Source: Terriglobia bacterium
Lineage (GTDB): Bacteria > Acidobacteriota > Terriglobia > 20CM-2-55-15
Direction: 5' to 3'
DNA length: 64,000 bases
Assembly (NCBI GenBank): GCA_965198225.1
Contig: CBDAOY010000009.1
Location: 736,001-800,000, forward strand
A model generated the notes under the pieces. The model searched no databases. It saw nothing but the letters and a program-made list of their open reading frames with translations, and had not been told where the DNA came from. Positions 15,734 through 62,139 of the stretch are shown piece after piece; position 1 is the stretch's first letter, and each line of letters starts with the position of its first letter. Position numbers and translations under genes: made by a program.

Positions 15734-18126
15734 TTCACTACCTTGTCATGGAGTTGGTGGAAGGAGACACCCTGGCCGCCCGGTTGGAAAAGGGACGGTT
15801 ACCGCTCGATCAGGCCCTCGAATACGCCATCCAGATCGCCGACGCGCTGGACAAGGCCCACCGGCAGGGCGTCGTGCACCGGGACCTCAAGCCCGGCAAC
15901 ATCATGCTGACGAAGTCGGCGGGCGTCAAGCTGCTCGACTTCGGATTGGCAAAGCTGAAGGGCGATGCTGGTGCCGTATCACCCCTCTCCCAGATGCCCA
16001 CGCAGGACCTCTCCGCACCCCTGACCGCCGAAGGCACCATCATCGGCACGCTCCAGTACATGGCACCCGAGCAGTTGGAGGGCAAGGAGGCCGACGCCCG
16101 GACGGACATCTTCGCGTTCGGTGCGGTGGTGTACGAGATGGTGACTGGGAAGAAGGCGTTTGAGGGGGCGAGTCAGGCGAGTCTGGTCGGGGCGATCATG
16201 AACCAGCAACCCGCGCCGGTCACCGAGGTTCAGCCTGTGTCGCCTCCCATGCTCGATGAGGTTATTACCGCGTGCCTTGCGAAGAGTCCTGAGGATCGGT
16301 GTCAAACCGCAACGGACCTCATGCGCGAATTGAAGTGGGTCACAGATGGCAGCGCACAAGTCGGAACGGCTTCCGTCGAAACTCCGTCGAAAGGCCGGGA
16401 CCTCATCTACTGGTCCGCGATGGGAGTCCTTCTGATTTCAACAGTGATCCTGGCCGTCGCTTATTTCTCTACCACACCCCAGGAGCAGACGGCATTCCGA
16501 TTCTCCTTCGCCCAACCCCTGCAGGCTCTCGGGGACGTGCTGGCTATCTCACCCGACGGCGAACGAATTGCATTTCTCGCACCAGCCCCCACCGGGGATC
16601 AGGCGGTCTGGGTCCGTGAACTCGCGTCCGGCGAGATGCGGATGCTGTCGGGCACGGAGGGTGCCGGTAGGTCTCTGTTCTGGTCACCCAATGGGCAGTC
16701 CATAGGATTCTTCACGGCGACAGCCCTCCGGGTTGCGGATCTTTCCGGAGCGGCTCCCCGGACGGTCTGCGCTGTGCCCCAACGACACTCAGGCGGCACA
16801 TGGAGCGCCCAGGGAGACATCATCTTCAACAGCGCCGGTGTCTTGAACCGGGTGTCGGCGTCGGGCGGCCAACCCGTTTCGGTGGATGTGCCGGGTTCGT
16901 ACCCCTACTTCCTACCCGATGGGATTCATTTCCTCTATAGAGCGCGCAGCTCAGGCCTTGAGCCGTCGTCGATTTACCTGGCGTCCCTGGAATCCGCAGA
17001 AACGCGCATTCTGTTGATCGCCGACCGCAACACCAAGGCCGTGTACGCGAGCGGCCATGTCCTGTTCGTGAGCGCAGGCGTGTTGATGGCGCAGCCGTTT
17101 GACGCCGATCGCCTCGAGCTCACGGGAGAAGCCCGCCGAATCGGTCCCCAGGTGTCCTCTCCTGGGGTCTTTAGGGCAGACGAAGTACCGTTTTCGGTTT
17201 CGGCCAACGGTATTCTCGCGTTTCGGTCCGGGAACCGCGTGGACGGACAACTCGTGTGGTTCGATCGTGGGGGAAACGAGACCCGGCGGGTTCATCAGCC
17301 GGAATCGGGCGAGTATCTGAACCCGTCCCTGTCGCCGAACGGGCAGCAGATAGCGGTGAACCGCAGGGATCCGGCGACCGGAAATGTCGATATCTGGCTG
17401 ATCGATGTGGGAAGGGATACCGCCCTCTCCGCTCACGTCAACGCCATCGGTCGATGCCGACCCGGTCTGGTCGCCAGACGGCGAGGAAATCGCCTTTTCG
17501 TCCTACCGGAACGGGAAGTGGGGTATCTGGAAGAGGAACATCCGTGCGGGCCAGGAAGAGCTTCTCTGGGAGGATGTCGAGGGAACCGTCCTAATTCCAT
17601 GGACTGGTCGCCGGACGGACAGTTCGTTTTGCTCCAATGGGGAAACGACGACGTTTGGGTGCTGCCCGTTTCCGGGGACGACCCCTGGCCGCTTTTCAAC
17701 GATCCGGGTTATGTAGAGCGCGCCGCCCACTTTTCGCCGAACGGGCAGTGGGTCGCCTACACTTCGCAAGAAGCCGGTGCGAACACTGTCTACGTGGCGC
17801 GGTTCCCGGACGCGACCGACCGCAAACGCGTCTCCGACGGTGCAGGCTCGCATCCAAGGTGGAGGAGCGACGGGGGGGAGCTGTTCTACAAGAGCGGCGA
17901 CGTCAGCGCACCGCTCATGGCGGTCAGGGTGGATTCCCGCCCATCGGGCCTCGAGTTTGGCAGGCCGGAACCGATTTTTGATTCGACGACGTCGGGGATG
18001 CTGGACGGTCGGAACCATTATGCCGTGACCGGCGACGGAAACAGTTTTCTGCTGCGCCGACCGAGCCTGGATCCAGCGCCCGTAACCATAGTCGTCAACT
18101 GGACGACTGAACTCGATAACCAATGA
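15734..18126 (+). pseudogene. Ser/Thr kinase-TM-PD40/TolB propeller protein K1, about 80 N-terminal codons removed at the IS3 end, compensating frameshifts ~17420-17590
   Basis: Begins IHYLVMELVEG immediately after the IS3 IRL; HRDLKPGN, DFGLAK, GTLQYMAPE; the correct propeller segment sits in ORF 17405. Confidence 0.88.
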
Positions 18127-19766
18127 ACCCCGGCACCCAACTCGGCCACTACGAGATCACCGACAAGCTCGGCCAGGGCGGCATGGGTGAGGTGTGGAAG
18201 GCCCGCGACCAGAAACTCGGACGCGAGGTGGCCATCAAGACCCTTCCCGAGGAGTTTGCTCAGGACGAAGAACGGCTGGCCCGGTTCGAGCGTGAGGCGA
18301 AGCTGCTGGCCTCTCTGAACCACCCGAACATCGCCACCATCCACGGACTCGAAGAAGACAACGACACGCGATTCCTCGTCCTCGAACTCGTCGAAGGCGA
18401 CACGCTGGCTGACAGATTGAAACATGGCGCTATCCCGGTCGAAGAATCCCTCAAGCTGGCCCTCCAGATTGCTGAAGGCTTCGAAGCGGCGCACGAGAAA
18501 GGCGTCATCCACCGGGATCTCAAACCCGGGAACATCAAGGTCACGCCGGACGGCAAGGTGAAGGTGCTGGACTTTGGGTTGGCGAAGGCATTTGCCGGTG
18601 ACGGTGCGGACGTGAACCTGTCACAGTCACCGACGTTGAGCATGGCAGCAACGCAGCAGGGAGTGATTCTTGGCACTGCTGCATACATGAGCCCCGAACA
18701 GGCCAGCGGCCTGGAGGTGGACAAACGCAGCGACATTTGGGCGTTCGGGGTCGTGCTGTTCGAACTGCTGGCCGGACGGGGTTTGTTCACGGGAGAAACG
18801 GCCCCGCACATCCTGGCTTCGGTCTTGAAGACCGACCCCGACTGGAAGAGTCTGCCACCGAATCTCCATCCCCGACTCCGACTACTCCTTGAACGCTGCC
18901 TGGAAAAGGAATCGAAAGACCGGTACGGTGACATTTCCGATGCCCGAGTGGATGTTCAGAGGGTACTGGCTGATCCTGTCGGCGTTCTGGTCCAGCCCGC
19001 TACTGAGGTTGTTCAGGCCGCACCGCAATCAAAACTGCCGTGGGTCGCCGCCTTCGCGCTGGGTCTTGCCTTGGCCGGTATCGCGGTCTGGAACCTGAAA
19101 CCTGATGCGCCCGACGCGTCTGGTCCATTGATCCGATTTTCTCAACTCCTGCCTGAAGACCAGCAGTTCACTCGCACCGGTCGTCCGGTTGTTGCGGTTT
19201 CGCCGGACGGTTCCAGAATCGTGTACGTGGCCAATAATCAACTTTACCTGAAAGCGATGGATACGCTGGAAGCCAGCGGGATTCCCGGGACGGACGATGA
19301 TCCCGCGGCCCCATTCTTCTCGCCGAACGGTCAGTGGATTGGTTTCTGGTCTGGAGTCGACCGTCAACTCAAGAAGATCGCTGTTAGCGGTGGCGCACCC
19401 ATCATGCTCTCGGATGCCGAGAATCCTTTGGGTGTCCCGAGTTGGGAGGCGGACGACACGATTGTTTTCGGCCAGTCCGAAGGAATCAAGCGGGTTTCGG
19501 CGAATGGCGGCGAAGCGGAATTACTTGTGGCCGGGGCCAACATTTCGACTCCGCAAATGTTGCCCGACGGGCAAACGCTGCTCTTCTTCGACCACGTTGC
19601 CGACGAAATCGCCGTCCAGTCGTTGAACTCAGATGAACGGACGGTACTGTTGCCCGGTGAATACCCGAGATATGTTTCGACCGGACACATCGTCTATGGA
19701 ATCGAGGACGTTCTGTCTGCGGTTCCATTCGACGTTCGGTCACTCGAACTGAGGGGTGGACCGGTT
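18123..19766 (+). pseudogene. Ser/Thr kinase-propeller K2, C-terminal half of the propeller missing, fused to the start of K3
   Basis: Intact kinase domain (GQGGMG, VAIK, HRDLKPGN, DFG) and TM; the propeller runs in frame into TLGHYEITDKLGKGGMG. Confidence 0.88.
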
Positions 19767-22501
19767 ACTCTGGGCCACTACGAGATCACCGACAAGCTCG
19801 GCAAGGGCGGCATGGGTGAGGTGTGGCGGCACAGGACTCGAAGCTGGGTCGTCAGGTTGCCATCAAGACCCTGCCCGAGGAGTTTGCCAAGGACGAAGAA
19901 CGGCTGGCCCGGTTTGAGCGTGAAGCAAAGCTGCTGGCGTCCCTGAACCATCCGAACATCGCAACCATCCACGGAGGAACACGAAGGCACCCGCTTCCTT
20001 GTCCTCGAACTCGTTGAAGGCGACACGCTGGCGGACCGGCTGAAGCGTGGTGCGATCCCCGTTGAGGAATCGCTCAAACTCGTCCTCCAGATAGCGGAAG
20101 CCCTCGAAGCAGCGCATGAGAAGGGCGTCATCCACCGGGATCTCAAGATCTCAAGCCCGCCAACATCAAGATCACACCCGACGGCAAGGTCAAGGTGCTG
20201 GACTTCGGACTGGCGAAGGCGTTTGCCGGAGATGGGGTTGATGCAAACCTGTCGCAGTCGCCGACCCTGAGCATGGCAGCCACGCAACAGGGCGTGATTC
20301 TCGGGACTGCGGCATACATGAGCCCCGAGCAGGCGCGTGGTGAGTTTGCTGACCAACGCGCTGATGTCTGGTCCTTTGGCGTTGTGTTGTTTGAGATGCT
20401 GACGGGACGTGGCACGTTTGAAGGGCACACTGTCTCAGACGTGCTGGCGTCCGTTCTCAAGATCGATCCCGAATGGGACAGCCTCCCGGTAAACCTCCAT
20501 CCGCGACTCCAGCAGCTTCTCGAGCGATGTTTGGAAAAGGGGGCGAAGGACAGGTACCACGGCATCGCTGATGCTCGTGTGGATATTCAGAAGGTACTGG
20601 CTGATCCGGGGTTCAGACATGGGACCGCCGATGGGACTGGAGTCCCTGCGGGCGTCGGTCCGTGGAACCGGCTGACGGTCGCGTTCGCGGCAGTCGCCGC
20701 CGTCCTGGCGGGGACCCTCGCCTGGTCGCTCCTCCGTCCGATGGAGAGGCCCGTCAGCCGCTACAGCATCGAGTTACCTGTCACTCAGCGGAGCGACGGC
20801 CTCGGCTCGAGCGTCGCGGTCTCACCAGACGGGACTCAGATGGTCTACGTGGGTCCGGGGGAACAGGGCCGACAGCTCTGGCTACGCCGACGTGACCAAC
20901 TTCAGGCGACGCCCATCGCGGGCACCGAGGGAGCGCTGCCGCAGAACCCCGTCTTCTCTCCGGACGGCCGGAGGGTGGCCTTCCACGAAGGTGGCGGGGT
21001 TTCTGGCGGGGTCGGCGCGGTCTCACTGAGCGGTGGGTCACCGTTGGCGATCGTGGAGAGCGGCGTTGGAACTGAGGGGCTCGCCTGGAGTCCCGATGGC
21101 TACATCTACTTCCCGGCTCCTGGGACGGGTAGTGCTCTTGTCCGCGTGCCGGAGACGAGCGGCAAGGTGGAGCCGTTCACCGTGCTTGACACGGCCCAGA
21201 GCGAGGCGCGTCACATCTGGCCGCAGGCTCTCCCCAACGGTCGCGGTGTGCTGTTCACGGTGGCCCACCAGCCCGATGCCGACGTCAGCCAGTACGACAT
21301 TGCGGTGGCGGACATGGAGACCGGGGAGCACGAGGGTCTCGTGCGCGGCGTGTTCGCCCGCTACGCGGCGTCGGGGCATCTGGTCTACGTGACGGCGGAC
21401 GGGAGGCTCCTGGCCGCTCCGTTCGATCAGGACGGGCTGCAGCTGGCGGGAGACCCAGTGGCGCTGGCCGAGGGAGTCGGTGTGCGCAGATTCGGTTCGG
21501 TCCACCTCGCGCTGTCGGACGACGGCACGCTCGTGTATCAGGCCGGAGGTGGGAGCGGCGACTCCGAGTTCGTCTGGGTAACGCGCTCGGGCCAGGCGAC
21601 ACCCGTCGATCGTGGATTGACATTCGTTAACCTTAACAACTTCGAGTCGAGGCTTTCACCGGACGGGACGCGGATCGCGTTCAACCCCACGGTTGACGGC
21701 AACCAGGACATCTGGATCAAGCACCTGCCCGACGGTCCGCTGGAGCGGCTCACGTTCGCCGAGGATGATGACTTCAGGCCATTCTGGACGCCCGATGGTC
21801 AGACCGTGACGTACTTCTCGGGTCCCCTCGAAGGGACCGTGCCCAGCCCCGACGTATGGTCTAAGCGTGCTGACGGAACGGGAGAAGCGGTGCTGGTGCT
21901 CGACGAAGAGCGCGGCTTCGCCCAAGGGTCGTGGAGTCCCGATGGCGAGTGGCTCGTGCTCCGCGCCGCGGCAAACGCGGCTTTGGGTCTGGGCCTGCGC
22001 GACATCCTGGCTTTCCATCCGGGCGTGGACAGCGCGGCCATACCGCTGGTGGCGACACCCGAGTTTGCCGAGGGACAACCGGCATTGTCGCCGGACGGGA
22101 GATGGCTGGCGTACAGTTCCAACGAAACGGGCAGCTTCGAGGTGTTCGTGCGTCCGCTCCCCGATGTGAACTCGGCCAGGGTGCGGGTCTCGAGGGACGG
22201 GGGGCTCGGGCCGCTCTGGGCGCACAGCGGGCGTGAGCTGTTCTTCGTGGATGAGGACCGTGGGCTGGTGGCTGCCCAGTTCGATCCAGCCTCGGGGCAG
22301 GTGCTGGCGCAGGAGACGCTGTACACCATACCGGTGGGATATGTCGTGGCACCGGGCGGCAACTTCTACGACATCACGTCAGATGATCAGCGGTTCCTGA
22401 TGGTCCGCCCCTACGAGGGCGAGGGCGAGGCGGCCTCGACCGAGGTCATCGTGGTCGAGAACTTCTTCGAAGAACTGAAGGAACGGGTGCCGGTGCCATG
22501 A
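19767..22501 (+). pseudogene. Ser/Thr kinase-propeller K3, frameshifted kinase domain
   Basis: Kinase split over ORFs 18123/19823/20195; shifts near 19830 and 19975; GATCTCAA duplication at ~20139-20154; ends NFFEELKERVPVP. Confidence 0.88.
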
Positions 22502-24925
22502 TCGGCAAGACGCTGGGCCACTACGAGATCACCGACAAGCTCGGCCAGGGCGGGATGGGATCAGTCTGGCTGGCGCAGGACGCGAAGTTAGGGCGTCAGG
22601 TTGCGATCAAGACCCTCCCCGAGGAGTTTGCGCGGGACGAAGAGCGCCTCGCCCGGTTTGAACGTGAGGCGAAGCTGCTGGCCTCTCTGAACCATCCCAA
22701 CATCGCGACGATCCACGGTCTCGAAGAACACGAGGGCACTCAATTTCTTGTCCTTGAACTCGTGGAAGGCGACACGCTTCAGGATCGGCTCAAACGTGGT
22801 GCCATCCCCGTCGAAGAATCCCTCAAGCTGGCCCTCCAGATCGCCGAAGCTCTCGAAGCTGCACACGAGAAGGGCGTCATCCACCGCGATCTGAAGCCGG
22901 GCAATATCAAGGTCACACGAGACGGCAAGGTGAAAGTGCTGGACTTCGGGCTGGCGAAGGCTTTCATTGGCGACGGTGCCGACGCCAGCCTGTCGAACTC
23001 CCCAACTCTGAGTATGGCGGCGACGCAGCAGGGAATCATCCTCGGTACTGCCGCGTACATGAGCCCCGAACAGGCTCGTGGTGAGACCACTTGACAAGAG
23101 GGCGGACATATGGGCATTCGGTGTCGTGTTGTTCGAAATGCTCACCGGGCAAGGGACCTTCGATGGGCGAACGGTGTCGGACGTGTTGGCTGGCGTGCTG
23201 GCGAGGGAACCACAGTGGAACACGCTGCCACTGAACCTTCATCCGCGCATTCGGTTGCTTCTGGAGCGTTGCTTGGAGAAGGAGGCGAAGGACCGGTATC
23301 ACGACATCGCTGACGTGCGCGTGGACATTCAGAAGGTACTCGCCGACACGGGCGGCGAGCTGGCGGCCTCGACACCGGAGGTGGGGCGCTGGAATCGGCG
23401 GACGGTCGCGATGACGGTCCTAGCCGCAATGTTCGCCGTCGTCGCCAGTTGGTCGCTGCTTCGTCCTGTGACTGAACCTCTCGGTTCGGTCGCCCGATTC
23501 GATACGCCGTTCCAGGACGGGCAGGCCCCGACCGGTTGGCTCGAGCTGACCCGGGATGGTTCTGCTCTCATCTATGTGGGTCCCGGAGAGACGAGCGGAG
23601 GGTCGCAGCTGTGGATGCGGAATTGGAACGGACTGGAGGCACGGCCGATTCCGGGAACTGCAGGAGTCGGAGGAAACCGTGCCTTTGCGGTTTCACCGGA
23701 CGGGAGGGAGGTGGCGTTCGTCCAGGGCAATCCGGGCCCGCTGCGGGTGGTGCCGGTTGCCGGGGGACCGGGCCGGACACTGGCAGAAAATGCTCGCACT
23801 GCGTCCTGGTCCGACGATGGATGGCTCTACTTCATGGGCCTGGACTTCGCCATCAGCCGCGTGCCGGATACCGGCGGCGAGATCGAAACGGTGACCCAGC
23901 TTGCGGAGCGAGACCGCAGACACACCCCCCATCCCATGCCCGGTGGGAAGGTCTTGCTGTACACCGTGGTGGGCCGCGGCGATCTATACGGCAGTGACGC
24001 AGCCATTTGGTCGATGGACATGGAGACGGGCGAGCGGAAGATGATGACAGCGGGATCGATGGCGCGTTACGCGGCGTCAGGGCACCTGCTGTCAGCACTC
24101 CGGACAGGCACTTGATGGCCGCGCCGTTCGATATGGCGAGTGCGGCGTTCACAGGGAATGCCGTTCCTGTTGTGGACGGCCTGACGCGCGGAAGATCCGG
24201 TGTTGCGGCCTTTAGCGTGTCGGAGGACGGCAGTCTCGTCTATCGTGCGGGCGGGGGTTCTGGCGTGCGCGAGTTCGTTTGGGTGACCCGTTCGGGTGAG
24301 GCGAGCCCGGTCAGCCCGGGCGAAACGCTCCGTTGGACAAATCAGGGGCAGAATAGTGGCCTGCGGCTGTCTCCGGATGGCCGCCGGGTGGCGTTCACGA
24401 ACGAAACGAACGGGAATGTGGACATCTGGACCAAGGTACTGCCAGATGGCCCGATGTCCCGCCTCACCTTCGATGATGCTCTGGAACAGCTCCCGGCCTG
24501 GACGCCCGATGGCCGGGAGATCACGTTCGCGTCGAGGCGGGGGAACTCGAATTCTGTCGGTCCCGGCCAATTTTATCGCGTGTGGCAGCGGCCGGCCAAC
24601 GGCACGGCGGAGGCCGAGTTGGTCTACGGAGACTCGGACTCCCCGAGTGGGGAGGGTGTCTGGAGCCCGGACGGGTGGCTGGTGGTCCGCAGGAACCCCG
24701 CCCCACCCGAACACCCCACCTCAGACATCATCGGGCTGCGACCCGGCGAGGACGGCGAAGCGGAGCCGCTGGTCGTGAGCGACAGGTTTCATGAACAGTA
24801 CCCTGCAGTCTCGCGGGACGGCCGCTGGCTGGCGTACATATCCAACGAGACGGGCCGTGATGCGGTCTTCGTGCGGCCCTTCCCGAACGTCACCGACGGG
24901 AAGTGGCAGATTTCAAACGAAGGGG
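22498..24925 (+). pseudogene. Ser/Thr kinase-propeller K4, frameshifts near 23090 and 24095, interrupted by an IS1595-containing insertion
   Basis: ORFs 22498, 23078 and 24007 are consecutive parts; homology stops at KWQISNEG. Confidence 0.88.
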
Positions 24926-24975
24926 AGTATACGCTTACCTTGACACGCCCATAGGGATCTTATACACTTATCCCT

Positions 24976-27254: not shown

Positions 27255-27302
27255 ATGCACGGCCTCGCCCTAGTACTCGCCGCCCACCACGAGGCCGTGC
27301 CA

Positions 27303-27750: not shown

Positions 27751-27761
27751 GATCTATTCCG

Positions 27762-53076: not shown

Positions 53077-53169
53077 CCTTCGCTGAGCGACCTTCCAACC
53101 ACCGCAACTCTCTTCCGACTACAGGAATCAGCAGTCCTCGACAATCCACGGGGATGTATGGCCGCCGAC

Positions 53170-53785
53170 ACTCCAAGCTCGGACGTGAAGTCGCCATCAA
53201 GACCCTCCCCGAGGAGTTTGCCAATGACGGGGAGCGACTGGCCCTCTTTGAGCGTGAAGCGAAGCTACTCGCCTCGTTGAACCATCCGAACATCGCCACG
53301 TTCCACGGTTTGGAAGAAGACAACGGTACCCGGTTTCTCGTCTTGGAACTCGTTGAAGGCGACACGCTGGCGTACAGGCTGAAGCGCGGCGCCATCCCCG
53401 TCGAAGAATCCCTCAAGCTCGCGCTCCAGATCGCCGAAGCGCTCGAAGCCGCTCACGAGAAGGGCATCATCCTCCGGGTCCTGAAACCCGCAAAAATAAA
53501 AGTCACACCCGACGGCAAGCTGAAGGTCCTGGATTTCGGTCTGGCGAAGGCATTTGCGGGGGATGGTTCCGACGTGAACTTGTCGCACTCCCCAACGATT
53601 AGCATGGCGGCGACGCAGCAGGGCACGATTCTCGGAACGGCCGCATACATGTCCCCCGAGCAAGCCAAGGGACGCGAGATCGACAAGAGGACCGACATAT
53701 GGGCCTTTGGCTGCGTGCTCTACGAAATGCTCATAGGCCGATCCGCCTTTGGCGGTGAAGACGTTGCGGATACGCTTGCGTTCGT
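53170..53785 (+). pseudogene. Kinase-domain fragment K8, catalytically degenerate
   Basis: Starts at [10 protein letters not shown]; HRDLKPANI replaced by LRVLKPAKI; homology ends at DVADTLA. Confidence 0.85.
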
Positions 53786-54014
53786 GGGGATAAGTAAAAT
53801 AGGAGGGGTTGGCAGTGTAGGGTGTGTGGGAAGCGCAGCCGAGGCCAACCTGGTGCCGGAGGCTCGCGGCCGGGTGGTTTCCCAGCCCGGCATACTGGTT
53901 TCACAGGCGGTTCCAACGCATGGACACGTTGATTTGCACGGGCCAGTACGCTACTTTTGAATGTCGTTTTTTCGATATGGATTACAGAGCGCGATATCAA
54001 AGAAAGACCAACCT

Positions 54015-54782
54015 ATGACACCCATTCTGCGTCTATTTCGAATCCTGCTGCCGGGCATCATAGTGGGCATCGCTTTGAATGCGGCATTCCAGACCAGCGC
54101 GTACAGTCAAGCCCCAGAAGGGTCACCTACAAGAGCGTATAAGCCGCGCCCGCCGGAAGGTAAAGTTCCCATTCTCTGGATTGGTGGTGGCGACTGGCAC
54201 GATACATTGAATAACGCCGGTATCCTGCGATGGTACCTTGAAGCAGCGGGTCCTTACCACATCACTTACACCGAGGATTATGACGTGTTCACCCGCCTGC
54301 GCCCATATCGCGTGGTCGTGATGCATCACCAGGCCCGCAGTATCACAAATGCTGAAGAGCGTGCCCTGCTGGATGCGGTTTCAGCAGGGAAGCCGGTCGT
54401 GGCCCTGCACTCCAGCACGGCGGCGCTCCGGGTTGAAGGGCACGAGCGTCCCAAATATCACGCACTGCTGGGCGCGCGGTTTCTCAAACACCCTCCCCAA
54501 CACGACTTTCGCGTAACGCTGACCGACCGCGCTCATCCCATCCTCAGCGGGCTGGACGATTTCAACATCTGGGACGAGCTCTATATGTTTGACAGTCTCC
54601 AGCCCGATCGCCATGTGTTGATGACCGCGGACTTTGAGGGAACTACCTATCCTATCGCCTGGACCCGGCAGCATGGAAAGGGGAAGGTGTTCTACACGGC
54701 ACTGGGGCACGGCGTCGAGGCCAACAGCAACCCACACTTTCAGCGCCTCGTCCACCAGGCAATCGAATGGGCCCTGGAGTAA
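54015..54782 (+). CDS. ThuA-like (trehalose utilisation, GATase-like) domain protein
   Basis: Signal peptide; GGGDWHD, VALHSS, DELY, PIAWTRQHGKGKVFYTALGH. Confidence 0.85.
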   Translation: MTPILRLFRILLPGIIVGIALNAAFQTSAYSQAPEGSPTRAYKPRPPEGKVPILWIGGGDWHDTLNNAGILRWYLEAAGPYHITYTEDYDVFTRLRPYRVVVMHHQARSITNAEERALLDAVSAGKPVVALHSSTAALRVEGHERPKYHALLGARFLKHPPQHDFRVTLTDRAHPILSGLDDFNIWDELYMFDSLQPDRHVLMTADFEGTTYPIAWTRQHGKGKVFYTALGHGVEANSNPHFQRLVHQAIEWALE

Positions 54783-54869
54783 GGATCGTGGTCCGGCCGT
54801 AGCAGGAGTAATTGCATGGCTGGCTCAGACCACGCCGCGGCCGGACAGCCAGTCAAATCCTTCACTGCA

Positions 54870-54924
54870 GATCAACGTCGTCTTGAACTGGACGGAAGAA
54901 CTAAAGGAACGGGTGCCGGTGCCC
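54870..54924 (+). pseudogene. Kinase-propeller 3' remnant
   Basis: INVVLNWTEELKERVPVP. Confidence 0.85.
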
Positions 54925-55343
54925 TATTCGCCGCCACCGAACCTCCCCGACAGCGTCTCGGTTTGCCACTCTGTTTCAATCCACATGCTCGAAAAGTCGT
55001 TAGCGTTCATCGGAAGTGCCGCGGCGAGCGCGGCCACAGGATGAGCGAGAAGTTCCCACCGCGGCAGTTTCGATAACAAGACTTGAAGGAGGGCGCTGGC
55101 CGAATGCGGCGGACGCGGTGGGCTATGGAGAAAGTAGCCGGAAGCGGGCCGGATCTGGAGTGGCGTTGGGGCGAGGAGGGGGACCGGCGGTCGATGACCG
55201 CGTCGATGGTGTGAATCGGAAAGCAGTTGGGTCGGGGAATCGGTGGGTTGAAAGGACGGGATCTGAGGGGATTTTGCAGCGGAGGCACACTCCGGCGAGG
55301 ACGTGGCTGAACCGCACGTCGGTCGTCGGTTTGTGAAGGAGGA

Positions 55344-56513
55344 TTAGGACGTATCGCATTGGAAGGCGAGCCTCGCTACGAGTTGCAGAGCGGTGAAGCG
55401 TTGGATGAGAGTCATCGGTCCCTGACAGTGCGGACACGACCAGGAAGAGTTCGAGGTGGTGGTTTCGTCAGATTCGACCCTCGGCATGGCATCGAGGAGT
55501 TGGCGACAGAGAGCGAAGGCGGCCGACCGGCGGTAGTTGGCCATGAATCCGAAGTGTCGGATGCGGACGAAGCCCTTCGGCAGAACGTGCAATAAGAACC
55601 GTCGGATGAACTCGTCGGCCGCGAGTGTCATGATGCGACTCTTGTTGCCATTGCGGTAATCCCGCCAACGGAACCGGACCCGGTTACCGTCAAACGAGAT
55701 CAATCGATGGTTGGAGATGGCGACCCGATGGGTGTAGCGGCCCAGGTAGCGGAGCACCTGTTCGGGGCCACCAAAGGGTCGTTTGATATAGACGACCCAG
55801 TTGCGGGAATGGATCTGGCGGCGGAACCGCCGAAAGTGTTGCGGTTCGCCGAAGGGTCGAATCGAGCCGGACAGTTCGAGCGAACCGTCGGCGATCGCTC
55901 GCCCGAGCCCGTCGATGAACTTGCCACGGAAGACTCGGGCGAGCACCTGCTTGGGGAGGAAGAAGCGCCCAGAACCCGGAATCCAACGGGACTGATCCGG
56001 AGCCAGTCCGCCGGCCGGTACCACGCAGTGGATGTGGGGATGGAACTCCAGGTTCTGACTCCAGGTATGCAGGATGCCGAAGAAGCCGATCCGGGCGCCG
56101 AGTCGTTTCGGATTGGCCGCCACCTCGATCATCGTGTCGGCCACGCTGCGAAACAGCAGGCTGTAGAGTAGGGCAGGGTTGTGGAAGAAGAACGGATGGA
56201 ACTGGTGCGGGACGGTGAACACGACGTGGAAGTAGGGGGTGGGCAGCAGTTCGGCTTCTCGTGCTTCGAGCCACCGTCGTCGGGCCTGGGTCTGACACTT
56301 CGGGCAGTGGCGGTTGCGGCAGGAGTTGAACGAGATTCCGGACTCCCGGCCACAATCGGCACACCGGTCGATGTGGCCACCCAGAGCCGCAGTACGACAG
56401 TTCAGGATGGCGCGCAGGACCTTGAGCTTCTGGATGCCGAGGCGGTGACGCTGGAGGAAACCTCGAACCCGGGCGCGGACGATGTCGGCCACCTCGACGG
56501 CGGGCCGGCTCAT
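55344..56513 (-). CDS. IS91-family transposase
   Basis: Identical translation to copy 1. Confidence 0.93.
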   Translation of the reverse strand: MSRPAVEVADIVRARVRGFLQRHRLGIQKLKVLRAILNCRTAALGGHIDRCADCGRESGISFNSCRNRHCPKCQTQARRRWLEAREAELLPTPYFHVVFTVPHQFHPFFFHNPALLYSLLFRSVADTMIEVAANPKRLGARIGFFGILHTWSQNLEFHPHIHCVVPAGGLAPDQSRWIPGSGRFFLPKQVLARVFRGKFIDGLGRAIADGSLELSGSIRPFGEPQHFRRFRRQIHSRNWVVYIKRPFGGPEQVLRYLGRYTHRVAISNHRLISFDGNRVRFRWRDYRNGNKSRIMTLAADEFIRRFLLHVLPKGFVRIRHFGFMANYRRSAAFALCRQLLDAMPRVESDETTTSNSSWSCPHCQGPMTLIQRFTALQLVARLAFQCDTS

Positions 56514-57400
56514 TCGCCTTTCTTCTTTCTCAGACGGGGAGACGGTCCCAGATCGGGAACCGGAAGAGAATCGATCGGGTTCACCACGCGCTGCATGTGC
56601 GCCTGAGACAAATGGAGATAGAGGGTCGTCGCTTCCAGATCGACATGACCCAACAGGAGCTGGATGGTTCGCAGGTCGGTTCCCCTCTCCAGCAGGTGGG
56701 TGGCCCAGCTGTGGCGCAGCGTATGTGGGGATACTTTCTTTTTGATGCCGGCACGTTGGGCGGCTTGTTGGACGGCGTACCAAACCGTCTTCACATCGAT
56801 GGGCTGTCCGGGCCGGGTCCGGAGCAAACTGGGGAAGAGGTACTCGCCGGGTTTCCGCCAACGCCAGTAGTCGCGCAGGACTTCCAGCAGTTTCGGTGAC
56901 AGCGGCACGTCGCGGTCGCGATTGCCTTTACCCTGCCTCACATGGATCACCATGCGTTCGCTATCGACGTCCTCGACCTTCAGACGACACAGCTCGGCCC
57001 GCCGCAGTCCCGTCGAATACAAGGTCATCAGGATGACGAAGTGATAGGCACTGTTGGCGGAGGCCAGCAGTTGCGCCACTTCCTCTTCGCTCAGAATCGT
57101 GGGCAACCGGGACGGCTGTTTCGGATAGACCAGATCGACCTGGTGATAGGGACGGCGAAGCACCTTCACGTAGAAGAACCGGAGTGCGGCGATCCGTCCG
57201 ATGATGGTGTCGACAGCGAGCTTGCGCTCCTGAAGCAGATGCAGCTGGTACTGCCGCATCTGTTCCTGTTCGAGCTTGTCGGGGGACTTCCCGAAGTAGC
57301 GGGCGAAGTCTTCGACCGCGTGAAGATACAGCCGAATCGTAGCGGGTGAGTAGTTCCGGCGCTGGAGTTCCTCCAGCATCCGTTGTCGCAGCTTCGTCAT
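56510..57400 (-). CDS. Tyrosine recombinase
   Basis: Identical translation to copy 1. Confidence 0.93.
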   Translation of the reverse strand: MTKLRQRMLEELQRRNYSPATIRLYLHAVEDFARYFGKSPDKLEQEQMRQYQLHLLQERKLAVDTIIGRIAALRFFYVKVLRRPYHQVDLVYPKQPSRLPTILSEEEVAQLLASANSAYHFVILMTLYSTGLRRAELCRLKVEDVDSERMVIHVRQGKGNRDRDVPLSPKLLEVLRDYWRWRKPGEYLFPSLLRTRPGQPIDVKTVWYAVQQAAQRAGIKKKVSPHTLRHSWATHLLERGTDLRTIQLLLGHVDLEATTLYLHLSQAHMQRVVNPIDSLPVPDLGPSPRLRKKKGE

Positions 57401-57629
57401 GTGAGCCTCCTTGTGAGGCTCACACTCTATCGGGGGCTCATCACTCTTCGCTCAGCACACGCGTAGCGTCCGCCGCGCCAGCGGCTTCGTTCAAGTCGCC
57501 TATGCTCCCATGTGGATCTTGCCAGAAAGGCCCCGTTTCAGGCGCTTCGCAGGTTTCTCCGTATCGGCGGCGTTACAGGATATTGCCTTCCTGATTGACC
57601 CCAAGTCCGTTCCGTAGTCTGATCTAGGC

Positions 57630-57707
57630 GTGATCCAACCCGGTTCAGCGCTCGCGCACTATGAAGTCGTTTCTGCCCTCGGCAAGGGCGGCATGGGCGA
57701 GGTGTAG
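57630..57707 (+). pseudogene. Kinase 5' remnant
   Basis: [25 protein letters not shown], preceded by the TTGACC motif. Confidence 0.85.
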
Positions 57708-57858
57708 AAAGCCCGGGAAAATCCACTTTGACAACGGATGCGACGGTTCAAGTCTGCATGAGTTGACCAGCGGGGCCGACAGCGAGGCCCAGCGACACCG
57801 ACCGGACTGCTGAAACAGTTTTGTGGTGCCTATCGCGTAGAAGGTACGCGACAAAGAC

Positions 57859-58695
57859 ATGAGTGGCAAACGCCAGATCGACTACGGGGAGGTTCGGCGC
57901 TACTTTGCTCAAGCTGGCGCCGACACGGCGGCTTGTGCGAGCTACATGGCCCACGCACAAGACTTGCCCGAAAACGCTGTTCGTTATCGCTTCCGGAAGG
58001 AAGGCGCAGCGATACGCGACTGGCTCGATGTCGGGGGGCCGCAAGCGCGGGTACTCGACTTGGGCTGTGGGTCGGGGACCTGGACCGAGCTCTTCGCTCA
58101 GCGCTTCGGCAGCGTCATCGGGATCGAACAGAGCCCTGCGATGCTGGTCGCTGCAAAAACGAAACTCATGGGACGGTCGAACGTGGAGCTTCTGAACCAG
58201 GACGTTCGAGAGCCATTGCCACCGGGGCCATTTGATCTCGTCTTTTTAGGAGGGATCTGCATGTACCTGAGCGACGCTGACACGATCGCGCTCGTTCAAG
58301 CAGTTATCGAACGTCTCGGTGATCGAGGGCGGGTCGTTTTACGGGAGACTACCGTTGCGAACGGATACGAGCACGTAGAGGGCGAGTATCATGCGATCTA
58401 TCGCAGCGTCGACGTTTACCGAAGGCTCTTTCGAGAGGCTGGCTTGTCGCGCGTCGACACACGTCGAAACTACGCCTATACCTATATGGAGATCGCAGTC
58501 GAACTCGTCGAACTGCGACGCCGCTACCTGCGTATGCTGCCGTACACGTCACCTTTTCTTGGCGCTTTGACCTGGTGGTCGCTACGGGCTACGTCGCCCG
58601 TATGCTTCGCGCTTCTTCCCCGAGCGGCGGCGTGGCTTCGTGTGTGTTGGCCAAAGCTCCAGAACCATTTTTTTATGCTAGAGAATGCAAGTTGA
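57859..58695 (+). CDS. Class I SAM-dependent methyltransferase, phosphoethanolamine N-methyltransferase-like
   Basis: VLDLGCGSG; FDLVFLGGICMYLSDAD..GRVVLRET. Confidence 0.8.
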   Translation: MSGKRQIDYGEVRRYFAQAGADTAACASYMAHAQDLPENAVRYRFRKEGAAIRDWLDVGGPQARVLDLGCGSGTWTELFAQRFGSVIGIEQSPAMLVAAKTKLMGRSNVELLNQDVREPLPPGPFDLVFLGGICMYLSDADTIALVQAVIERLGDRGRVVLRETTVANGYEHVEGEYHAIYRSVDVYRRLFREAGLSRVDTRRNYAYTYMEIAVELVELRRRYLRMLPYTSPFLGALTWWSLRATSPVCFALLPRAAAWLRVCWPKLQNHFFMLENAS

Positions 58696-58722
58696 CGCTC
58701 TGGCAGATTCAGAGAGATCTAC

Positions 58723-60585
58723 GTGAAAACCGACCGATGGAATCTCACGCCCAATAAGCGCCCTGAAAGTATCCGCAAAGCGGTGATTCTCGCCGCCGGT
58801 GTTGGCAACCGGCTTCGTCCATTCACCAACAAGCTTCCAAAATGCCTGGTTCAGGTGGCCGGTGTTCCCATCCTGGACAATACACTCGCGCATCTGGCCG
58901 CGCTCGGTACCGAGGAAATCGCTATCGTCGTCGGCCACCACAAGGAGATCATCATCGAGCGGTTCGGCGCGAGTTACCTCGGAATGTCGATGACCTACGT
59001 CGTGTCGGAGGACTACGAGAAAACCAACAACATCTATTCGTTATGGCTCGCCCGTGATCATCTCACTCAAGACGTACTGCTGCTGGAGGCAGATGTTTTT
59101 TTCGAGCGCGCGGTTTTGGAGCGACTACTTTTGCAGAGTGGCGGCAACCTGGCCATCGTGTCGCGGCACCAGAGTTGGATGTCTGGCACGGTCGTCAGTG
59201 TGGATGCTCGTGGTCGCATCCAGGCAACGATCGACTCCCAGAATCAAGAGGATGGCTTCGATTATGCAAAGTTCTTCAAGACGGCCAACATCTACCTCTT
59301 TCGTCAGGACTTCCTCAACCGGTATTTCCTGCCGCAGCTGGAAGCCTACATCACGTCTAGAGACTACGACGAATACTACGAATCGATTCTCATCACGCTG
59401 GGGCACCGAGGCAAGAACAACCTCGTCGCTGTGGATTGTGACGACCTGAAGTGGTACGAGATCGATGATGAAAGCGACCGATTGGCGGCTGAGTATCTAT
59501 TCAACTCAGGCGAGGAGCGTTACGACCACGTCCAGAGCCAACACGGGGGGTATTGGCGCTTTGGGTTTGCCGATCACGCTTACTTGTACAATCCGTATTA
59601 CCCGCCTAAGCCGATGTTCGCGGATTTTGAGAACAACCTGCGCGAGCTGGTGCTCAACTATCCTCCCGGACAGGAGGTTGTCGCCCGGCTCGCCGGCACT
59701 TTGATCGGGCAACCTTCCTCTCGCATTCTGGTTGGAAACGGGGCTTCGGAACTGATTAAGATCATCTCTGGCCGCCTTCCCGGACCGATCGCCTGTCCTG
59801 TACCCTCGTTCAACGAGTACGAGGACGCTGCGCGAGCGGGGGCCTTCGTCCCGTTCGAACTGCCCTCTCCCACTTTCGAACTCGACGTAGATGCCTTTGC
59901 CCAACGGGTTCTCGCGACCGAGGCAAGACTGGCCATCGTAGTGACACCTAACAATCCCACCTCGTTGGCGGTGCCCAGAACAGACATCTTGCGCCTTGCC
60001 GCGAAACTCGAATCGACCGAATGCATGCTGGTTGTCGATGAATCCTTCATCGACTTTGCATACGACTATCAGGAGTTGAGCGTGGAGGGTTGGGTTGACA
60101 GCGTTCCTAACCTCGCGGTCCTCAAGAGCTTGAGCAAGTCCTTCGGGATCGGCGGACTGCGGCTGGGCTATCTCCTGACGGCCAATGAGGGACTCGCGAA
60201 CGCGGTGCGCGCCGAGTTGCACATCTGGAACATCAACGGTTTCGCGGAAGCCTTCCTGCGCCAGGCACCGCGCTGGCGCAAGGCGTTCAGGCAGAGTTGC
60301 GCTCTGGTTCGCGACCACTGCGATGAGCTCTACGAAGGGTTGAACGAGATCCCCGGAATGACAGCATATCGACCTCAGGCTAACTTCGTATTGTGTCGTC
60401 TCCCAGCTCCAGGCCCATCCGGTCCGGTCATCGCGAAACGGCTCTTCGTGGAGAACAACATCTTCGTCAAGCACTGCGCTGGTAAGCACATGTCGGATGC
60501 GGATCGGTATCTGCGCATCGCCAGCAGGACGGCCGCGGACAACCATATGCTCGTCGAAGCGATGCGGCAATGCCTGACCCAATGA
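58723..60585 (+). CDS. Fusion of a LicC-like nucleotidyltransferase and a class I/II PLP enzyme (CobD/HisC-like)
   Basis: AVILAAGVGNRLRP..PKCL, YEKTNNIYSL, WYEIDD; PNNPT, VVDESF, KSLSKSFGIGGLRLGY. Confidence 0.9.
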   Translation: MKTDRWNLTPNKRPESIRKAVILAAGVGNRLRPFTNKLPKCLVQVAGVPILDNTLAHLAALGTEEIAIVVGHHKEIIIERFGASYLGMSMTYVVSEDYEKTNNIYSLWLARDHLTQDVLLLEADVFFERAVLERLLLQSGGNLAIVSRHQSWMSGTVVSVDARGRIQATIDSQNQEDGFDYAKFFKTANIYLFRQDFLNRYFLPQLEAYITSRDYDEYYESILITLGHRGKNNLVAVDCDDLKWYEIDDESDRLAAEYLFNSGEERYDHVQSQHGGYWRFGFADHAYLYNPYYPPKPMFADFENNLRELVLNYPPGQEVVARLAGTLIGQPSSRILVGNGASELIKIISGRLPGPIACPVPSFNEYEDAARAGAFVPFELPSPTFELDVDAFAQRVLATEARLAIVVTPNNPTSLAVPRTDILRLAAKLESTECMLVVDESFIDFAYDYQELSVEGWVDSVPNLAVLKSLSKSFGIGGLRLGYLLTANEGLANAVRAELHIWNINGFAEAFLRQAPRWRKAFRQSCALVRDHCDELYEGLNEIPGMTAYRPQANFVLCRLPAPGPSGPVIAKRLFVENNIFVKHCAGKHMSDADRYLRIASRTAADNHMLVEAMRQCLTQ

Positions 60586-61214
60586 CGAGTCCATGCAGCC
60601 GACGAAGCGCCCTGTCTTTTGTCTACGACAGAGCCAACCTGCTGACGTTGGCGGGGCTAGTGTGCGGAATCCTGGCTATTTGGTTCAGCGCGCGCGGCGC
60701 CTATCCCGCCGCCACCACAGCCCTGCTGTGGGCGCTGTTTTGCGATTGGTTCGATGGTCCGCTGGCTCGGCGAATGACCGACCGGACCGACGAGGACCGG
60801 GCCTTCGGCGCACAACTCGACTCCCTGACCGATATCGTATCCAGCGGCGTCGCTCCCGCGGTGCTCCTGATCAGCATTGGCAACTTCGACCCCTGGTTTC
60901 TACCAGGCGCTTTTCTGCTGGTGGTCGCGGGAGCGATTCGGCTGGCTCACTTCAACATTTTTGGCACCGACGGTGGCGCATACAGCGGCCTGCCGATCGA
61001 CAGCAATATCATCGTTGTGACGGCTCTGTTTCCTTTCCGTGAGCTGCTCGGGCACGCCACGTTCTCGTGGGCTCTTTACGTTGCGGTCGCCACACTCGCC
61101 ATCCTAAACGTTGCCCCCTTTCGGATGCCGAAGCTGGTGGGTGGCTGGTACTACATTGTCGCGATCTACGTCGTTGCCATGACCGCACTGAACCTGAGCT
61201 CATTAACGCGCTGA
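60570..61214 (+). CDS. CDP-alcohol phosphatidyltransferase
   Basis: ANLLT, DWFDGPLARR..FGAQLDSLTD signature; multiple TMs. Confidence 0.9.
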   Translation: MPDPMTSPCSRRSALSFVYDRANLLTLAGLVCGILAIWFSARGAYPAATTALLWALFCDWFDGPLARRMTDRTDEDRAFGAQLDSLTDIVSSGVAPAVLLISIGNFDPWFLPGAFLLVVAGAIRLAHFNIFGTDGGAYSGLPIDSNIIVVTALFPFRELLGHATFSWALYVAVATLAILNVAPFRMPKLVGGWYYIVAIYVVAMTALNLSSLTR

Positions 61215-61257
61215 GCTGGACTCAAAAGTCGCGGCATGATTCCAGTGAATCAACATT

Positions 61258-61290
61258 GAAGCACTGAAGGAACGGGTGCCGGTGCCATGA
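61258..61290 (+). pseudogene. Kinase-propeller 3' remnant
   Basis: EALKERVPVP*. Confidence 0.8.
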
Positions 61291-61351
61291 CCTGTGAGAC
61301 TCCCCCAAAAATCTCCTCAGCGGTGTTTCTGAGAATCCACATCCCCGAGAA

Positions 61352-62139
61352 GTCGTTAGCGTTCATCGGAAGTGCCGCGGCGAGCGCGGCCACAGGATGA
61401 GCGAGAAGTTCCCACCGCGGCAGTTTCGATAACAAGACTTGAAGGAGGGCGCTGGCCGAATGCGGCGGACGCGGTGGGCTATGGAGAAAGTAGCCGGAAG
61501 CGGGCCGGATCTGGAGTGGCGTTGGGGCGAGGAGGGGGACCGGCGGTCGATGACCGCGTCGATGGTGTGAATCGGAAAGCAGTTGGGTCGGGGAATCGGT
61601 GGGTTGAAAGGACGGGATCTGAGGGGATTTTGCAGCGGAGGCACACTCCGGCGAGGACGTGGCTGAACCGCACGTCGGTCGTCGGTTTGTGAAGGAGGAT
61701 TAGGACGTATCGCATTGGAAGGCGAGCCTCGCTACGAGTTGCAGAGCGGTGAAGCGTTGGATGAGAGTCATCGGTCCCTGACAGTGCGGACACGACCAGG
61801 AAGAGTTCGAGGTGGTGGTTTCGTCAGATTCGACCCTCGGCATGGCATCGAGGAGTTGGCGACAGAGAGCGAAGGCGGCCGACCGGCGGTAGTTGGCCAT
61901 GAATCCGAAGTGTCGGATGCGGACGAAGCCCTTCGGCAGAACGTGCAATAAGAACCGTCGGATGAACTCGTCGGCCGCGAGTGTCATGATGCGACTCTTG
62001 TTGCCATTGCGGTAATCCCGCCAACGGAACCGGACCCGGTTACCGTCAAACGAGATCAATCGATGGTTGGAGATGGCGACCCGATGGGTGTAGCGGCCCA
62101 GGTAGCGGAGCACCTGTTCGGGGCCACCAAAGGGTCGTT
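61352..62139 (-). mobile_element. Recombinase-IS91 element, partial copy 4 (end downstream of tnp plus the 3' part of tnp)
   Basis: Matches copy 1 from GTCGTTAGCG up to an internal GTCGTT. Confidence 0.9.

Follow-up and report, generated by a model that had tools for sequence, protein, structure and literature searches.

Palindromic sites centred on GTCG as candidate junctions of a cassette array associated with an IS91-family element in Terriglobia

Introduction

Integrons and dif modules are the known systems by which bacteria store single gene blocks at short sites and trade them, and both use tyrosine recombinases. ISfinder appears to list some members of the IS91 family of insertion sequences (ISs) with an integrase gene. 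Here we analyse a 64,000-nt stretch of a Terriglobia genome of soil/marine type (G000; positions 736001-800000 of its contig C9, hereafter the window), in which a 2,495-bp IS91-family element encoding a Y2 HUH transposase and an Xer-like tyrosine recombinase lies among gene blocks separated by a ~60-nt imperfect palindrome that has GTCG(CC) at its centre and recurs in one orientation. We see an even chance that this is a cassette array whose junctions would be the target and termination sites of the element, acting by rolling-circle transposition. A preliminary description of the window, made from its letters and reading frames, had proposed an integron-like array of kinase-propeller cassettes delimited by hairpin recombination sites; what it observed is confirmed in part, and its interpretation is supported in part.

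In the available part of one account of the IS91 family (PMC13181058), the target tetranucleotide adjoins oriIS, the end downstream of the transposase gene tnpA, and no target duplication is made; in IS801 and IS1294 the tetranucleotide cleaved at the other end, terIS, is the same as the target. According to the same part, both ends have subterminal palindromes, the functional intermediate of insertion is a circle of single-stranded DNA, and termination fails in 1-14% of events (one-ended transposition), in which DNA past terIS is taken along; IS91 also has a small gene upstream of tnpA that sharpens termination, with a stop codon that overlaps the tnpA start (PMC13181058).

The G000 assembly comprises 6.4 Mb in 9 contigs with a G+C content of ~60%. 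We compared it with G002 and G003, which belong to the same genus and are single-contig chromosomes, and with G012 and G020 of another genus; all genomes compared are metagenome-assembled. Ordinary genes in the left flank of the window are 68-90% identical to those of G002 and G003, and core genes of G012 are 70-74% identical to those of G000. Between 15.4 and 62.1 kb the window holds serine/threonine (Ser/Thr) kinase-PD40 genes, many of them broken, with interspersed unrelated genes and four copies of the IS (Table 1). Synteny of the array with the same-genus genomes is poor, and its flanks map elsewhere.

An IS91-family element inserted at the centre of the sites

G000 holds 10 copies of the 2,495-bp element, seven complete and three partial. 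All 10 lie at the GTCG of a site in a single orientation, so the link between the Y2 element and the sites drawn in the preliminary description holds throughout the genome. GTCG is found at both junctions of all seven complete copies and at 10/10 left junctions, and the complete copies share the 5' context …CCAC-N-GTAT-N-GTCG and the 3' context GTCG-CC…GTGGAT (7/7). The half-sites are target sequence and not ends of the IS, because they vary from copy to copy while the IS copies are 98.9-100% identical. The same observations rule out that the sites are joined IS ends, to which the half-sites bear no likeness.

In copy 1 the minus strand encodes a tyrosine recombinase (30724-29834, 296 amino acids (aa)) and then a Y2 HUH transposase, probably at 29837-28668 (389 aa), with a start codon that overlaps the stop of the recombinase gene (ATGA at 29837-29834). 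A 505-aa transposase reading frame is encoded at 100% identity in eight places in G000. The transposase matches Pfam Y2_Tnp (E 1.7e-62, positions 1-181 of 183) and Zn_Tnp_IS91 (E 1.6e-30), and scores 431 bits against the NCBIfam model 'IS91 family transposase' (transpos_IS91; cut-off 125). The recombinase has the Pfam domains Phage_integrase and SAM_4. With 223 bits it passes the cut-off (220) of the NCBIfam XerA/'integron integrase' model, and among solved structures it comes closest to XerC-like, XerA and IntI4. It falls below the cut-offs of the integron-integrase model TIGR02249 (202.9 vs 265 bits, with the match in two pieces) and of PRK15417 (134.9 vs 435 bits).

The left end of the IS reads TTAGCGTTCATCGGAAGT, followed by the subterminal palindrome GCCGCG-GCGA-GCGCGGC, and the right end has the subterminal palindrome GCCGC-GCCA-GCGGC, followed by TTCGTTCAA. 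The termini are not inverted repeats of each other, direct CGTTC repeats are present at both, and oriIS, the end 3' of the transposase gene, abuts the target GTCG. The Y2 and zinc domains, the tetranucleotide and the unlike ends are as in the IS91 family, of which this element is a new member. An 85%-identical element occurs in two other genomes, where the left junction ends in GTCG in 11/11 copies, the right junction begins with GTCG in 9/11, and most copies lie in CCAC…GTAT/…GTGG contexts.

Two further subtypes combine an IS91-type transposase with a recombinase. A sister element of ~2.5 kb in G002 (L056:2790-5299, L057:17154-19663; 58% transposase identity) has more than 30 scattered copies, most of them with an in-frame TGA, and terminal sequences that are nearly those of the 2,495-bp IS. 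It is flanked by AACG on both sides, outside palindromes, and the rule of the tetranucleotide therefore extends across subtypes. The third subtype, at 48-58% identity, was seen in two genomes (G012 L064:12600-14800; G002 C1 ~6,299,200) in the opposite orientation, inserted ~70-90 nt downstream of a site core, right after the GAGTAYGSGGT of the conserved junction tail.

Short remnants of the IS were found in G002 as 15-nt scars, GTCG-CTAGCGTTC(N1-2)-GTCG, in which the first 9 nt and the last 1-2 nt of the element lie between two GTCGs and are fused at the shared CGTTC. Among the G002 loci examined there are four such scars (L028, L034, L057:3407 and L068:10349); two lie directly beside a full IS copy, and one lies directly before an amidohydrolase cassette. 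No such scar was found in G000.

Mobile units and their borders

A 517-nt unit is present in three copies in G000, each ending at a site core: one beside IS copy 1 (Table 1), one at C6:342 kb after another IS (97.7% identity) and one at C6:632.8-633.3 kb without an adjacent IS (97.5% identity). Homology among the three spans core to core (distance 0-14 nt) and then gives way to three different right halves. The IS together with the unit thus occurs at two loci, with the unit on the terIS side and ending at the next GTCG, a polarity that fits a one-ended model of transposition. No other duplication of the IS with its flank was found among the 21 right flanks compared.

G002 and G003 hold copies of the amidohydrolase block (31336-33341) and of the DUF305 block (34086-37147) at 97.5-98% identity, and for both blocks homology begins at the first G of GTCG. 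To the left of that G lie the left half of a site in G000, an IS110-family element in G003 and, in G002, either the end of another cassette or a left half with a 15-nt IS scar, so that each block has its left border at GTCG beside three different neighbours. When G002 is compared with G003, identity of the amidohydrolase block is 94.0% over a 282-bp piece that starts at the left GTCG and 97.3% over a 2,045-bp piece that reaches the right GTCG, and both flanks are unrelated. The two blocks are neighbours in G002 and lie 3.7 Mb apart in G003, in line with the earlier expectation that unit order differs between genomes.

In total, GTCG borders were seen at 13 distinct junction contexts of three cassettes. 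At the exact borders GTCG is the only sequence common across the junction, and the far sides are unrelated; since the junctions have nothing else in common, homologous recombination cannot place these crossovers. To judge from these borders, the sites are the break and join points that bound mobile units. The exact borders come from three recently moved cassettes in metagenome-assembled genomes. The preliminary description had held that the sites bound mobile units, and this is borne out by three near-identical cassettes that begin and/or end at GTCG, with unrelated DNA beyond, in G000 and two other species. Its expectation of breakpoints at GTCG is true of these three cassettes, while three other borders that we examined lie elsewhere.

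The three-gene cassette has a homologue in G012 (93% identity over 57591-61284), with sites on both sides there. Alignment of the DUF305 block with G002 and G003 falls into three pieces, with boundaries at 34200-34211 and 37016-37024 of the window; the relatives have insertions of ~60-100 nt at both ends of a 2.8-kb core, and contigs from several sequencing runs break at 34210/34211 and 37016/37026. The core may be an element nested in the cassette. Some read-set contigs start or stop at 31336 and at 40036/40038, and one passes 40036 into DNA unmatched to the window at a 90% threshold; this agrees with a variable context at GTCG, but we give it no weight, as contigs cannot show circles.

Sequence and distribution of the sites

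The consensus of the sites is approximately TTTCAATCCAC-N6-CCGTAT-N-GTCGCC-N-ATACGG-N6-GTGGAT, with ATCCAC-N6-CCGTAT in the left half and ATACGG-N6-GTGGAT in the right; after it comes a conserved tail, either CTCGTCGGGAAAGCCCCGT or a second variant. We built a profile from the sites and searched, with nhmmer, a copy of G000 from which the IS copies had been removed; a covariance model was also run on the window. The profile gave 44 non-overlapping matches at E ≤ 1 in the whole genome, 28 of them at E < 1e-3, and the strong intact sites of the window score between 2e-10 and 5e-7. Twenty-seven of the 28 lie in five loci (Table 1) that make up ~3.5% of the genome, and all sites within a locus are on one strand. 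Applied genome-wide, the covariance model found 18 matches, all but two inside the five loci, and a literal search for ATCCAC…GTGGAT gave one match only. The sites are thus not spread genome-wide, and the proposed covariance-model scan did place them in few loci, with no tie to kinase-PD40 genes. Right-half-only sites were commoner than left-half-only sites in the nhmmer search (about 7 vs 3). GTCG occurs 7.5 times per kb on the plus strand, with ~29 occurrences inside the IS, and because it is so frequent the context must define the site. Substitutions cluster in the first 5 nt after GTCG, at positions +1, +2, +3 and +5 in 4/9 copies.

The dyad symmetry of the sites is clear, with 65% of cells pairing in register vs 30-43% when the partner columns are slid. 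Halves shuffled among sites pair equally well (65.2% observed vs 65.6% shuffled). We found no covariation: a half pairs with its own partner at 6.5 of 13 positions and with a random one at 6.8, and the opposite ends of a single cassette pair at 7.5/13 (n = 16), again with no covariation found. Folding of single sites was mostly no better than that of shuffles (mean z -0.58; 4/27 sites with z < -2). A hairpin kept as a conserved fold was also considered, and RNAalifold on 17 intact sites predicted no pairs. We read the site as a palindromic recognition sequence with reassorted halves rather than as the selected, co-evolving hairpin of the preliminary description. Of the hairpins listed there, those at 27648, 31318 and 37126 are intact sites, 28302/30841, 40015/42554 and 54978/57517 are split sites and 61333 is a left half; those at 42622, 48150 and 53143 are weak or degenerate, and the strong site at 34065-34136 had been overlooked. 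The pair 50141/51467 was rejected as a split site, as neither edge has GTCG and the 1.3-kb piece between them is single-copy in G000.

Sites at E ≤ 0.001 were found in 13/34 genomes of the taxonomic family and in 5/11 genera. An IS91 relative is present in 8/8 family genomes with at least five sites vs 6/21 without sites, although these genomes are kin from 3 genera and not independent. G003 has 11 sites. An IS110-family element of ~1.4 kb (DEDD transposase, 343 aa) is inserted there in the centre of sites (L062:12583-14070; also at C1 ~5.2735 Mb, L059:18534 to L060:21), with a left flank that ends …CCGTAT and a right flank (A/G)TGGTCG… in 5/8 copies. One copy is found where a left half-site meets an oriIS end of IS91 type, and two copies have 60 nt of left flank in common and different cassettes from GTCG onward.

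Kinase genes and other features of the window

A promoter-like motif has 5 matches in the window, all on the plus strand and 26-97 nt after a site core or remnant; 1.03 are expected by chance, and 2/100 shuffles reach 5. A 3' coding motif has 7 matches, all on the plus strand, vs 0.08 expected, and the kinase start (repeat family D16) is present in 9 copies. The unit order given in the preliminary description (3' motif, site, promoter-like motif, kinase start) stands within the window and is not general, and the same is true of its view that the array is built on kinase-propeller genes. The array at C6:609-646 kb, whose cargo includes a purine/cytosine permease, MacB/FtsX, an FGE-sulfatase-like protein, an AAA protein and unknowns, has no kinase start after its sites, and several of the many clusters formed by the about 90 kinase/propeller matches in G000 have no sites.

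The cargo of the window is as first described: a holin of superfamily IV, dodecin, an amidohydrolase, DUF305, a toxin-antitoxin pair, a weak metallo-beta-lactamase (MBL) match, an M19 dipeptidase, ThuA and a three-gene block. The cargo is flanked by leftover kinase sequence, 0 to 870 nt from the 5' end of the gene and a short stretch from the 3' end, and such units are taken to be older replacements inside kinase cassettes. Homologues of the holin cassette in G002 and G003 (84-87% identity) start at 27718. Site S7 has a homologue at C6:295131-295186 that heads the same kinase gene (89% identity), and the region of the 339-aa open reading frame (ORF) is 86-89% identical in G001 and G002, in another context.

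No site was matched by nhmmer or the covariance model within the kinase run at 15421-27581, in which stops and starts overlap. The kinase-propeller genes at 18123-24954 are hybrids and frameshifted pieces, with a second kinase start at 19752 inside a gene, which suggests recombination among paralogues together with decay. An IS at 14481-15400 (293-aa ORF without a Pfam match) has at least 8 copies in G003 at 98% identity, against 68-90% for core genes of the two genomes. A repeat of ~275 bp resembling a miniature inverted-repeat transposable element (MITE) lies at 48335-48611 and has dozens of 77-93% identical copies in 5/5 related genomes searched. A search of the window against Rfam matched no family, and the GC skew is too weak to tell the strand bias of the sites relative to replication.

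Table 1. Coordinates of the features of the window, and the five loci of G000 that hold sites. CM, covariance model; HTH, helix-turn-helix.
Feature	Position	Strand	Remarks
Ser/Thr kinase-PD40 gene run	15421-27581	+	Pfam, repeat families; most broken or hybrid
Pieces of the kinase run	15421-18126, 18123-19946, 20195-22501, 22498-24954 (three frames), C-terminal remnant 26472-27581	+	
IS1595-family transposase	24976-25962		Inside the kinase run
Site S1, intact	27643-27697	+	GTCG 27664-27667; nhmmer E 1.9e-10, CM E 6.7e-9; best fold, z -4.3
Holin cassette	27668-28323	+	Holin superfamily IV gene 27879-28214; promoter-like motif 27725-27750; 86-nt kinase-start remnant 27762-27847; S2 left half 28302-28323
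Site S2	28302/30841		Split by IS copy 1
IS copy 1	28324-30818	-	Complete; GTCG 28320-28323 and 30819-30822
517-nt non-coding unit	30823-31339	+	Degenerate kinase 3' end; S2 right half to S3 left half
Site S3, intact	31314-31356	+	GTCG 31336-31339; nhmmer, CM
Amidohydrolase cassette	31340-33341	+	Gene 31601-33265 (Pfam); cut short at 33341 in G000
Right-half-only site	33346-33397	+	
Dodecin cassette	33346-34085	+	Gene 33635-33850; 93-96% identity in G012 and G020
Site S4	34065-34136	+	GTCG 34086-34089; nhmmer E 1.8e-10, CM E 7.8e-11; absent from the earlier list
DUF305 cassette	34090-37147	-	Gene 34228-36699 on the minus strand (Pfam)
Site S5, intact	37119-37193	+	GTCG 37144-37147; then promoter-like motif 37241-37266
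Kinase-PD40 gene, intact	37276-39972	+	Pfam
Site S6	40015/42554		Split by IS copy 2
IS copy 2	40037-42531	-	Complete; GTCG 40033-40036 and 42532-42535; splits site S6 (40010-42566)
Site S7, weak	42619-42679	+	TCG core ends 42641; nhmmer E 7e-4, CM E 2.6
Two intact kinase-PD40 genes	42845-45469, 45466-48135	+	Stop/start overlap
Degenerate site	48145-48202	+	Core lost (…GATAAG-CC…); nhmmer E 0.3
Gp49 (HigB-like) and HTH toxin-antitoxin pair	48711-49335	-	Overlaps start of MBL-fold fragment
MBL-fold fragment, weak	49092-49955		
339-aa coiled-coil ORF	50160-51179	-	Between left-half remnant ~50141 and right-half remnant ~51467
M19 dipeptidase unit	51482-52994	+	Promoter-like motif; ~120-nt kinase start (51518-); gene 51900-52994
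Degenerate site	53138-53176	+	Core mutated to GGCCGCC; right half fused to kinase coding sequence; E 0.22
ThuA unit	53154-54999	+	Kinase fragment 53154-53960 abuts ThuA gene 53961-54782; 3' motif 54895-54917; S8 left half
Site S8	54978/57517		Split by IS copy 3
IS copy 3	55000-57494	-	Complete; GTCG 54996-54999 and 57495-57498
Three-gene cassette	57499-61355	+	Between kinase-start remnant and 3' motif remnant; methyltransferase 57859-58695; NTP-transferase/aminotransferase 58723-60585; CDP-alcohol phosphatidyltransferase 60570-61214
Left half-site	61333		Then truncated IS copy 4
IS copy 4	61356-62139	-	Truncated; then truncated DUF885 gene
Five site loci of G000	C9:764-819 kb, C6:295-342 kb, C6:609-646 kb, C4:27-81 kb, C7:940-946 kb		

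A proposed one-ended transposition and its alternatives

As far as the available account of the family states them, the element fits each structural IS91 rule, with GTCG as the tetranucleotide. The transposase would cut one strand 3' of GTCG at oriIS, at terIS and in the target, as in IS801 and IS1294, and the palindrome would offer GTCG at its centre. When termination at its own terIS fails, the strand would run on to the GTCG of the next site and carry the neighbouring block along, and a later normal excision of the IS would leave that block between two hybrid sites. Repeated rounds would build and shuffle the array, which would leave the halves of a site matching no better than chance. The recombinase, which takes the place of orf121 of IS91, may sharpen termination or resolve tandem products. 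The 15-nt scar before the amidohydrolase cassette of G002 is what insertion of the IS plus cassette followed by loss of the IS would predict, and the surplus of right-half-only sites fits an asymmetric, origin-like role for the right half.

Several observations weigh against one-ended transposition as the source of the array. Base-exact borders are limited to three cassettes, and only one duplication of the IS with a unit was found among the flanks compared. The scar-free junctions need a precise loss of the IS, none of which was observed here; the ends of the cassettes are unlike those of the IS, which makes mobilisation in trans doubtful; and given the frequency of GTCG the site context must matter. 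A single nick would account less well than a staggered tyrosine-recombinase exchange for the substitutions clustered within 5 nt after GTCG, and an intact close copy of the IS is missing from G003, which has 11 sites and cassettes of 98% identity. Some borders are off the core. The right end of the amidohydrolase block in G000 is at 33341, next to a right-half-only site and not at GTCG, and in G003 the right end of the DUF305 block diverges 32 nt before GTCG. The match of the three-gene cassette to G012 ends at the promoter and 3' motifs, 92 and 71 nt short of the cores, and blocks of the array at C6:620-640 kb, with 76-92% homologues in relatives, gave no exact borders, their identity stopping 87-275 nt from the cores. 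Cargo between kinase 5' and 3' remnants of varying length is unexplained by either the one-ended or an Xer-like model.

A bolder reading, somewhat less likely than not, is offered tentatively. The array would belong to an undescribed cassette system of Acidobacteriota, in which the co-oriented GTCG palindromes are both entry and exit points and an operon of Y2 transposase and Xer-like recombinase cuts, carries and pastes arbitrary blocks as single-stranded units. The outcome would be integron-like and the chemistry different, with a crossover in the middle of the site that makes every junction a hybrid, and the system would move cassettes between species and genera.

Exchange by an Xer-like tyrosine recombinase is a serious rival, if on balance an unlikely one. 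Here the recombinase of the IS, or a host Xer, would exchange cassettes at dif-like sites with the inverted arms CCGTAT/ATACGG around the 6-bp centre GTCGCC, circles would re-insert as in integrons or Acinetobacter dif modules, and the IS91-family element would merely home there. The recombinase passes the XerA/'integron integrase' model and is nearest to XerC-like, XerA and IntI4 structures, and the dyad has an 11-6-11-like layout. Inverted arms like those of the site are absent from the IS junction; the IS itself is therefore not inserted by such exchange. Many functional-looking borders have a poor left arm (e.g. …CATGGTAA followed directly by GTCG), and right-half-only sites are common. 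A cassette circle would re-form one complete site, and hybrid halves are expected of site-by-site exchange; yet all the sites are direct repeats, unlike the alternating sites of dif modules. The substitutions within 5 nt after GTCG resemble an overlap region, and the IS scars between the direct CGTTC repeats at both IS ends look like a programmed deletion. Insertions of the sister IS, which carries the same recombinase, are at AACG and involve no palindrome. That G003 has cassettes and no intact close IS speaks for Xer-like exchange; the polarity of the duplication of the IS with the 517-nt unit is predicted by the HUH model and not by it.

It is improbable that the sites are mere favoured landing pads for ISs, a local palindrome of REP or terminator type, with the blocks brought in by ordinary horizontal transfer, homologous recombination in conserved junction or kinase segments and IS rearrangements, and with no machinery that cuts cassettes. 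Two unrelated IS families do home to the site centre, the IS91-family element with its recombinase in G000 and the IS110-family element in G003 (…GGTCG right flank in 5/8), and the region is rich in ISs, MITEs and broken kinase genes. The three-gene cassette has identity borders with G012 in the conserved promoter and 3' motifs, as such recombination would give, whereas at the exact borders of three cassettes, in 13 distinct junction contexts, GTCG alone is common and the far sides are unrelated. The sites are, moreover, co-oriented and confined to five loci in 27/28 cases. An assembly or binning artefact that placed shared mobile DNA in several genomes is a very improbable source of the near-identity of cassettes between species, even though the genomes are metagenome-assembled and G000 also shares an ordinary IS (window 14541-15400) with G003 at 98% identity, given that G002 and G003 are single-contig chromosomes with the cassettes inside long contigs in different neighbourhoods, that copies differ by 2-2.5% and by small insertions, that three 517-nt copies lie within one assembly, and that 72-91% of sampled words of window 30500-34200 are present in six sequencing runs from three studies.

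Comparison with known systems

With IS91, IS801, IS1294 and ISCR the element shares a Y2 HUH transposase with a zinc-binding N-terminus. As in those elements, it has two unlike ends with subterminal GC-rich palindromes, a 4-nt target by oriIS without true duplication and the same tetranucleotide at the terIS cut; those elements also capture DNA beyond terIS, and the upstream gene orf121 of IS91 has a stop that overlaps the transposase start, as the recombinase gene does here. The element differs in its tetranucleotide, which is GTCG and not CTTG or GTTC, in being aimed at the centre of a ~60-nt palindrome found only in arrays, and in having a full Xer-like tyrosine recombinase as its upstream gene. 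Read-through also seems to stop at the next site, so that captured DNA would come in defined units, unlike in IS91 and ISCR.

Integrons resemble the array in having co-oriented imperfect palindromes between mostly co-oriented cargo units, the same unit in different orders across genomes and similar types of cargo (toxin-antitoxin pairs, hydrolases and small unknown genes). IS110-family elements home to the sites here, and IS1111-attC elements home to integron sites. The element has no IntI, and the consensus, as the preliminary description had noted, is without the RYYYAAC/GTTRRRY ends of attC. The break here is at the palindrome centre, in the central GTCG, so that halves would be shuffled and not travel as one attC, and units can hold several genes with a promoter-like motif. 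No integron platform (attI and Pc) was found at the arrays in G000. With an Xer-like recombinase, no attC-type ends and units that carry their own promoter-like motif, the term integron-like does not go beyond analogy. Only one gene of G000 passes the integron-integrase model (C6:488798-489706, 446 bits); it has one in-frame TGA and lies more than 90 kb from any array, and a crude attC scan beside it gave nothing convincing.

The dif modules of Acinetobacter, in the portions of the reports available, are likewise gene modules bounded by short dyad-symmetric Xer-type sites and shuffled between replicons, with ISs (IS1202-family at pdif) that keep a constant spacing and direction relative to the sites. 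In G000 the sites are on the chromosome and are direct repeats throughout, whereas pdif sites alternate, and the recombinase is IS-borne with an HUH transposase involved. The dyad layout around GTCGCC fits in shape the 28-bp dif plan of 11-bp arms and a 6-bp centre; to our knowledge the sequence of the site is unlike known dif sites. Repetitive extragenic palindromes (REPs), with their mosaic arrangements (BIMEs) and Y1 transposases (RAYTs), offer a further parallel, being imperfect palindromes that, in the available parts of two reports (PMC3333891, PMC8266576), are IS landing sites and linked to an HUH enzyme. REPs number hundreds and are spread genome-wide, whereas the sites of G000 amount to about 30-44 matches in five loci; the enzyme belongs to the Y2 and not the Y1 type, and the sites delimit transferable gene blocks.

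In the literature searched, which did not extend to supplements and subscription papers, we found no description of an IS91-type element with a tyrosine recombinase or with a palindrome target serving a cassette array. The outcome known from integrons and dif modules seems tied here to an IS91-type element, with defined blocks, exact borders, varied order and 97-98% identity across species whose core identity is 68-90%. The site itself is short and well enough defined to be studied biochemically. If this reading is true, the tyrosine recombinase gene of some IS91-family elements gains a testable role, and there is a handle on the trade of accessory genes among the large, paralogue-rich genomes of Acidobacteriota. 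One-ended transposition would then have gained a defined stop signal, which would amount to a true cassette system of the IS91 family.

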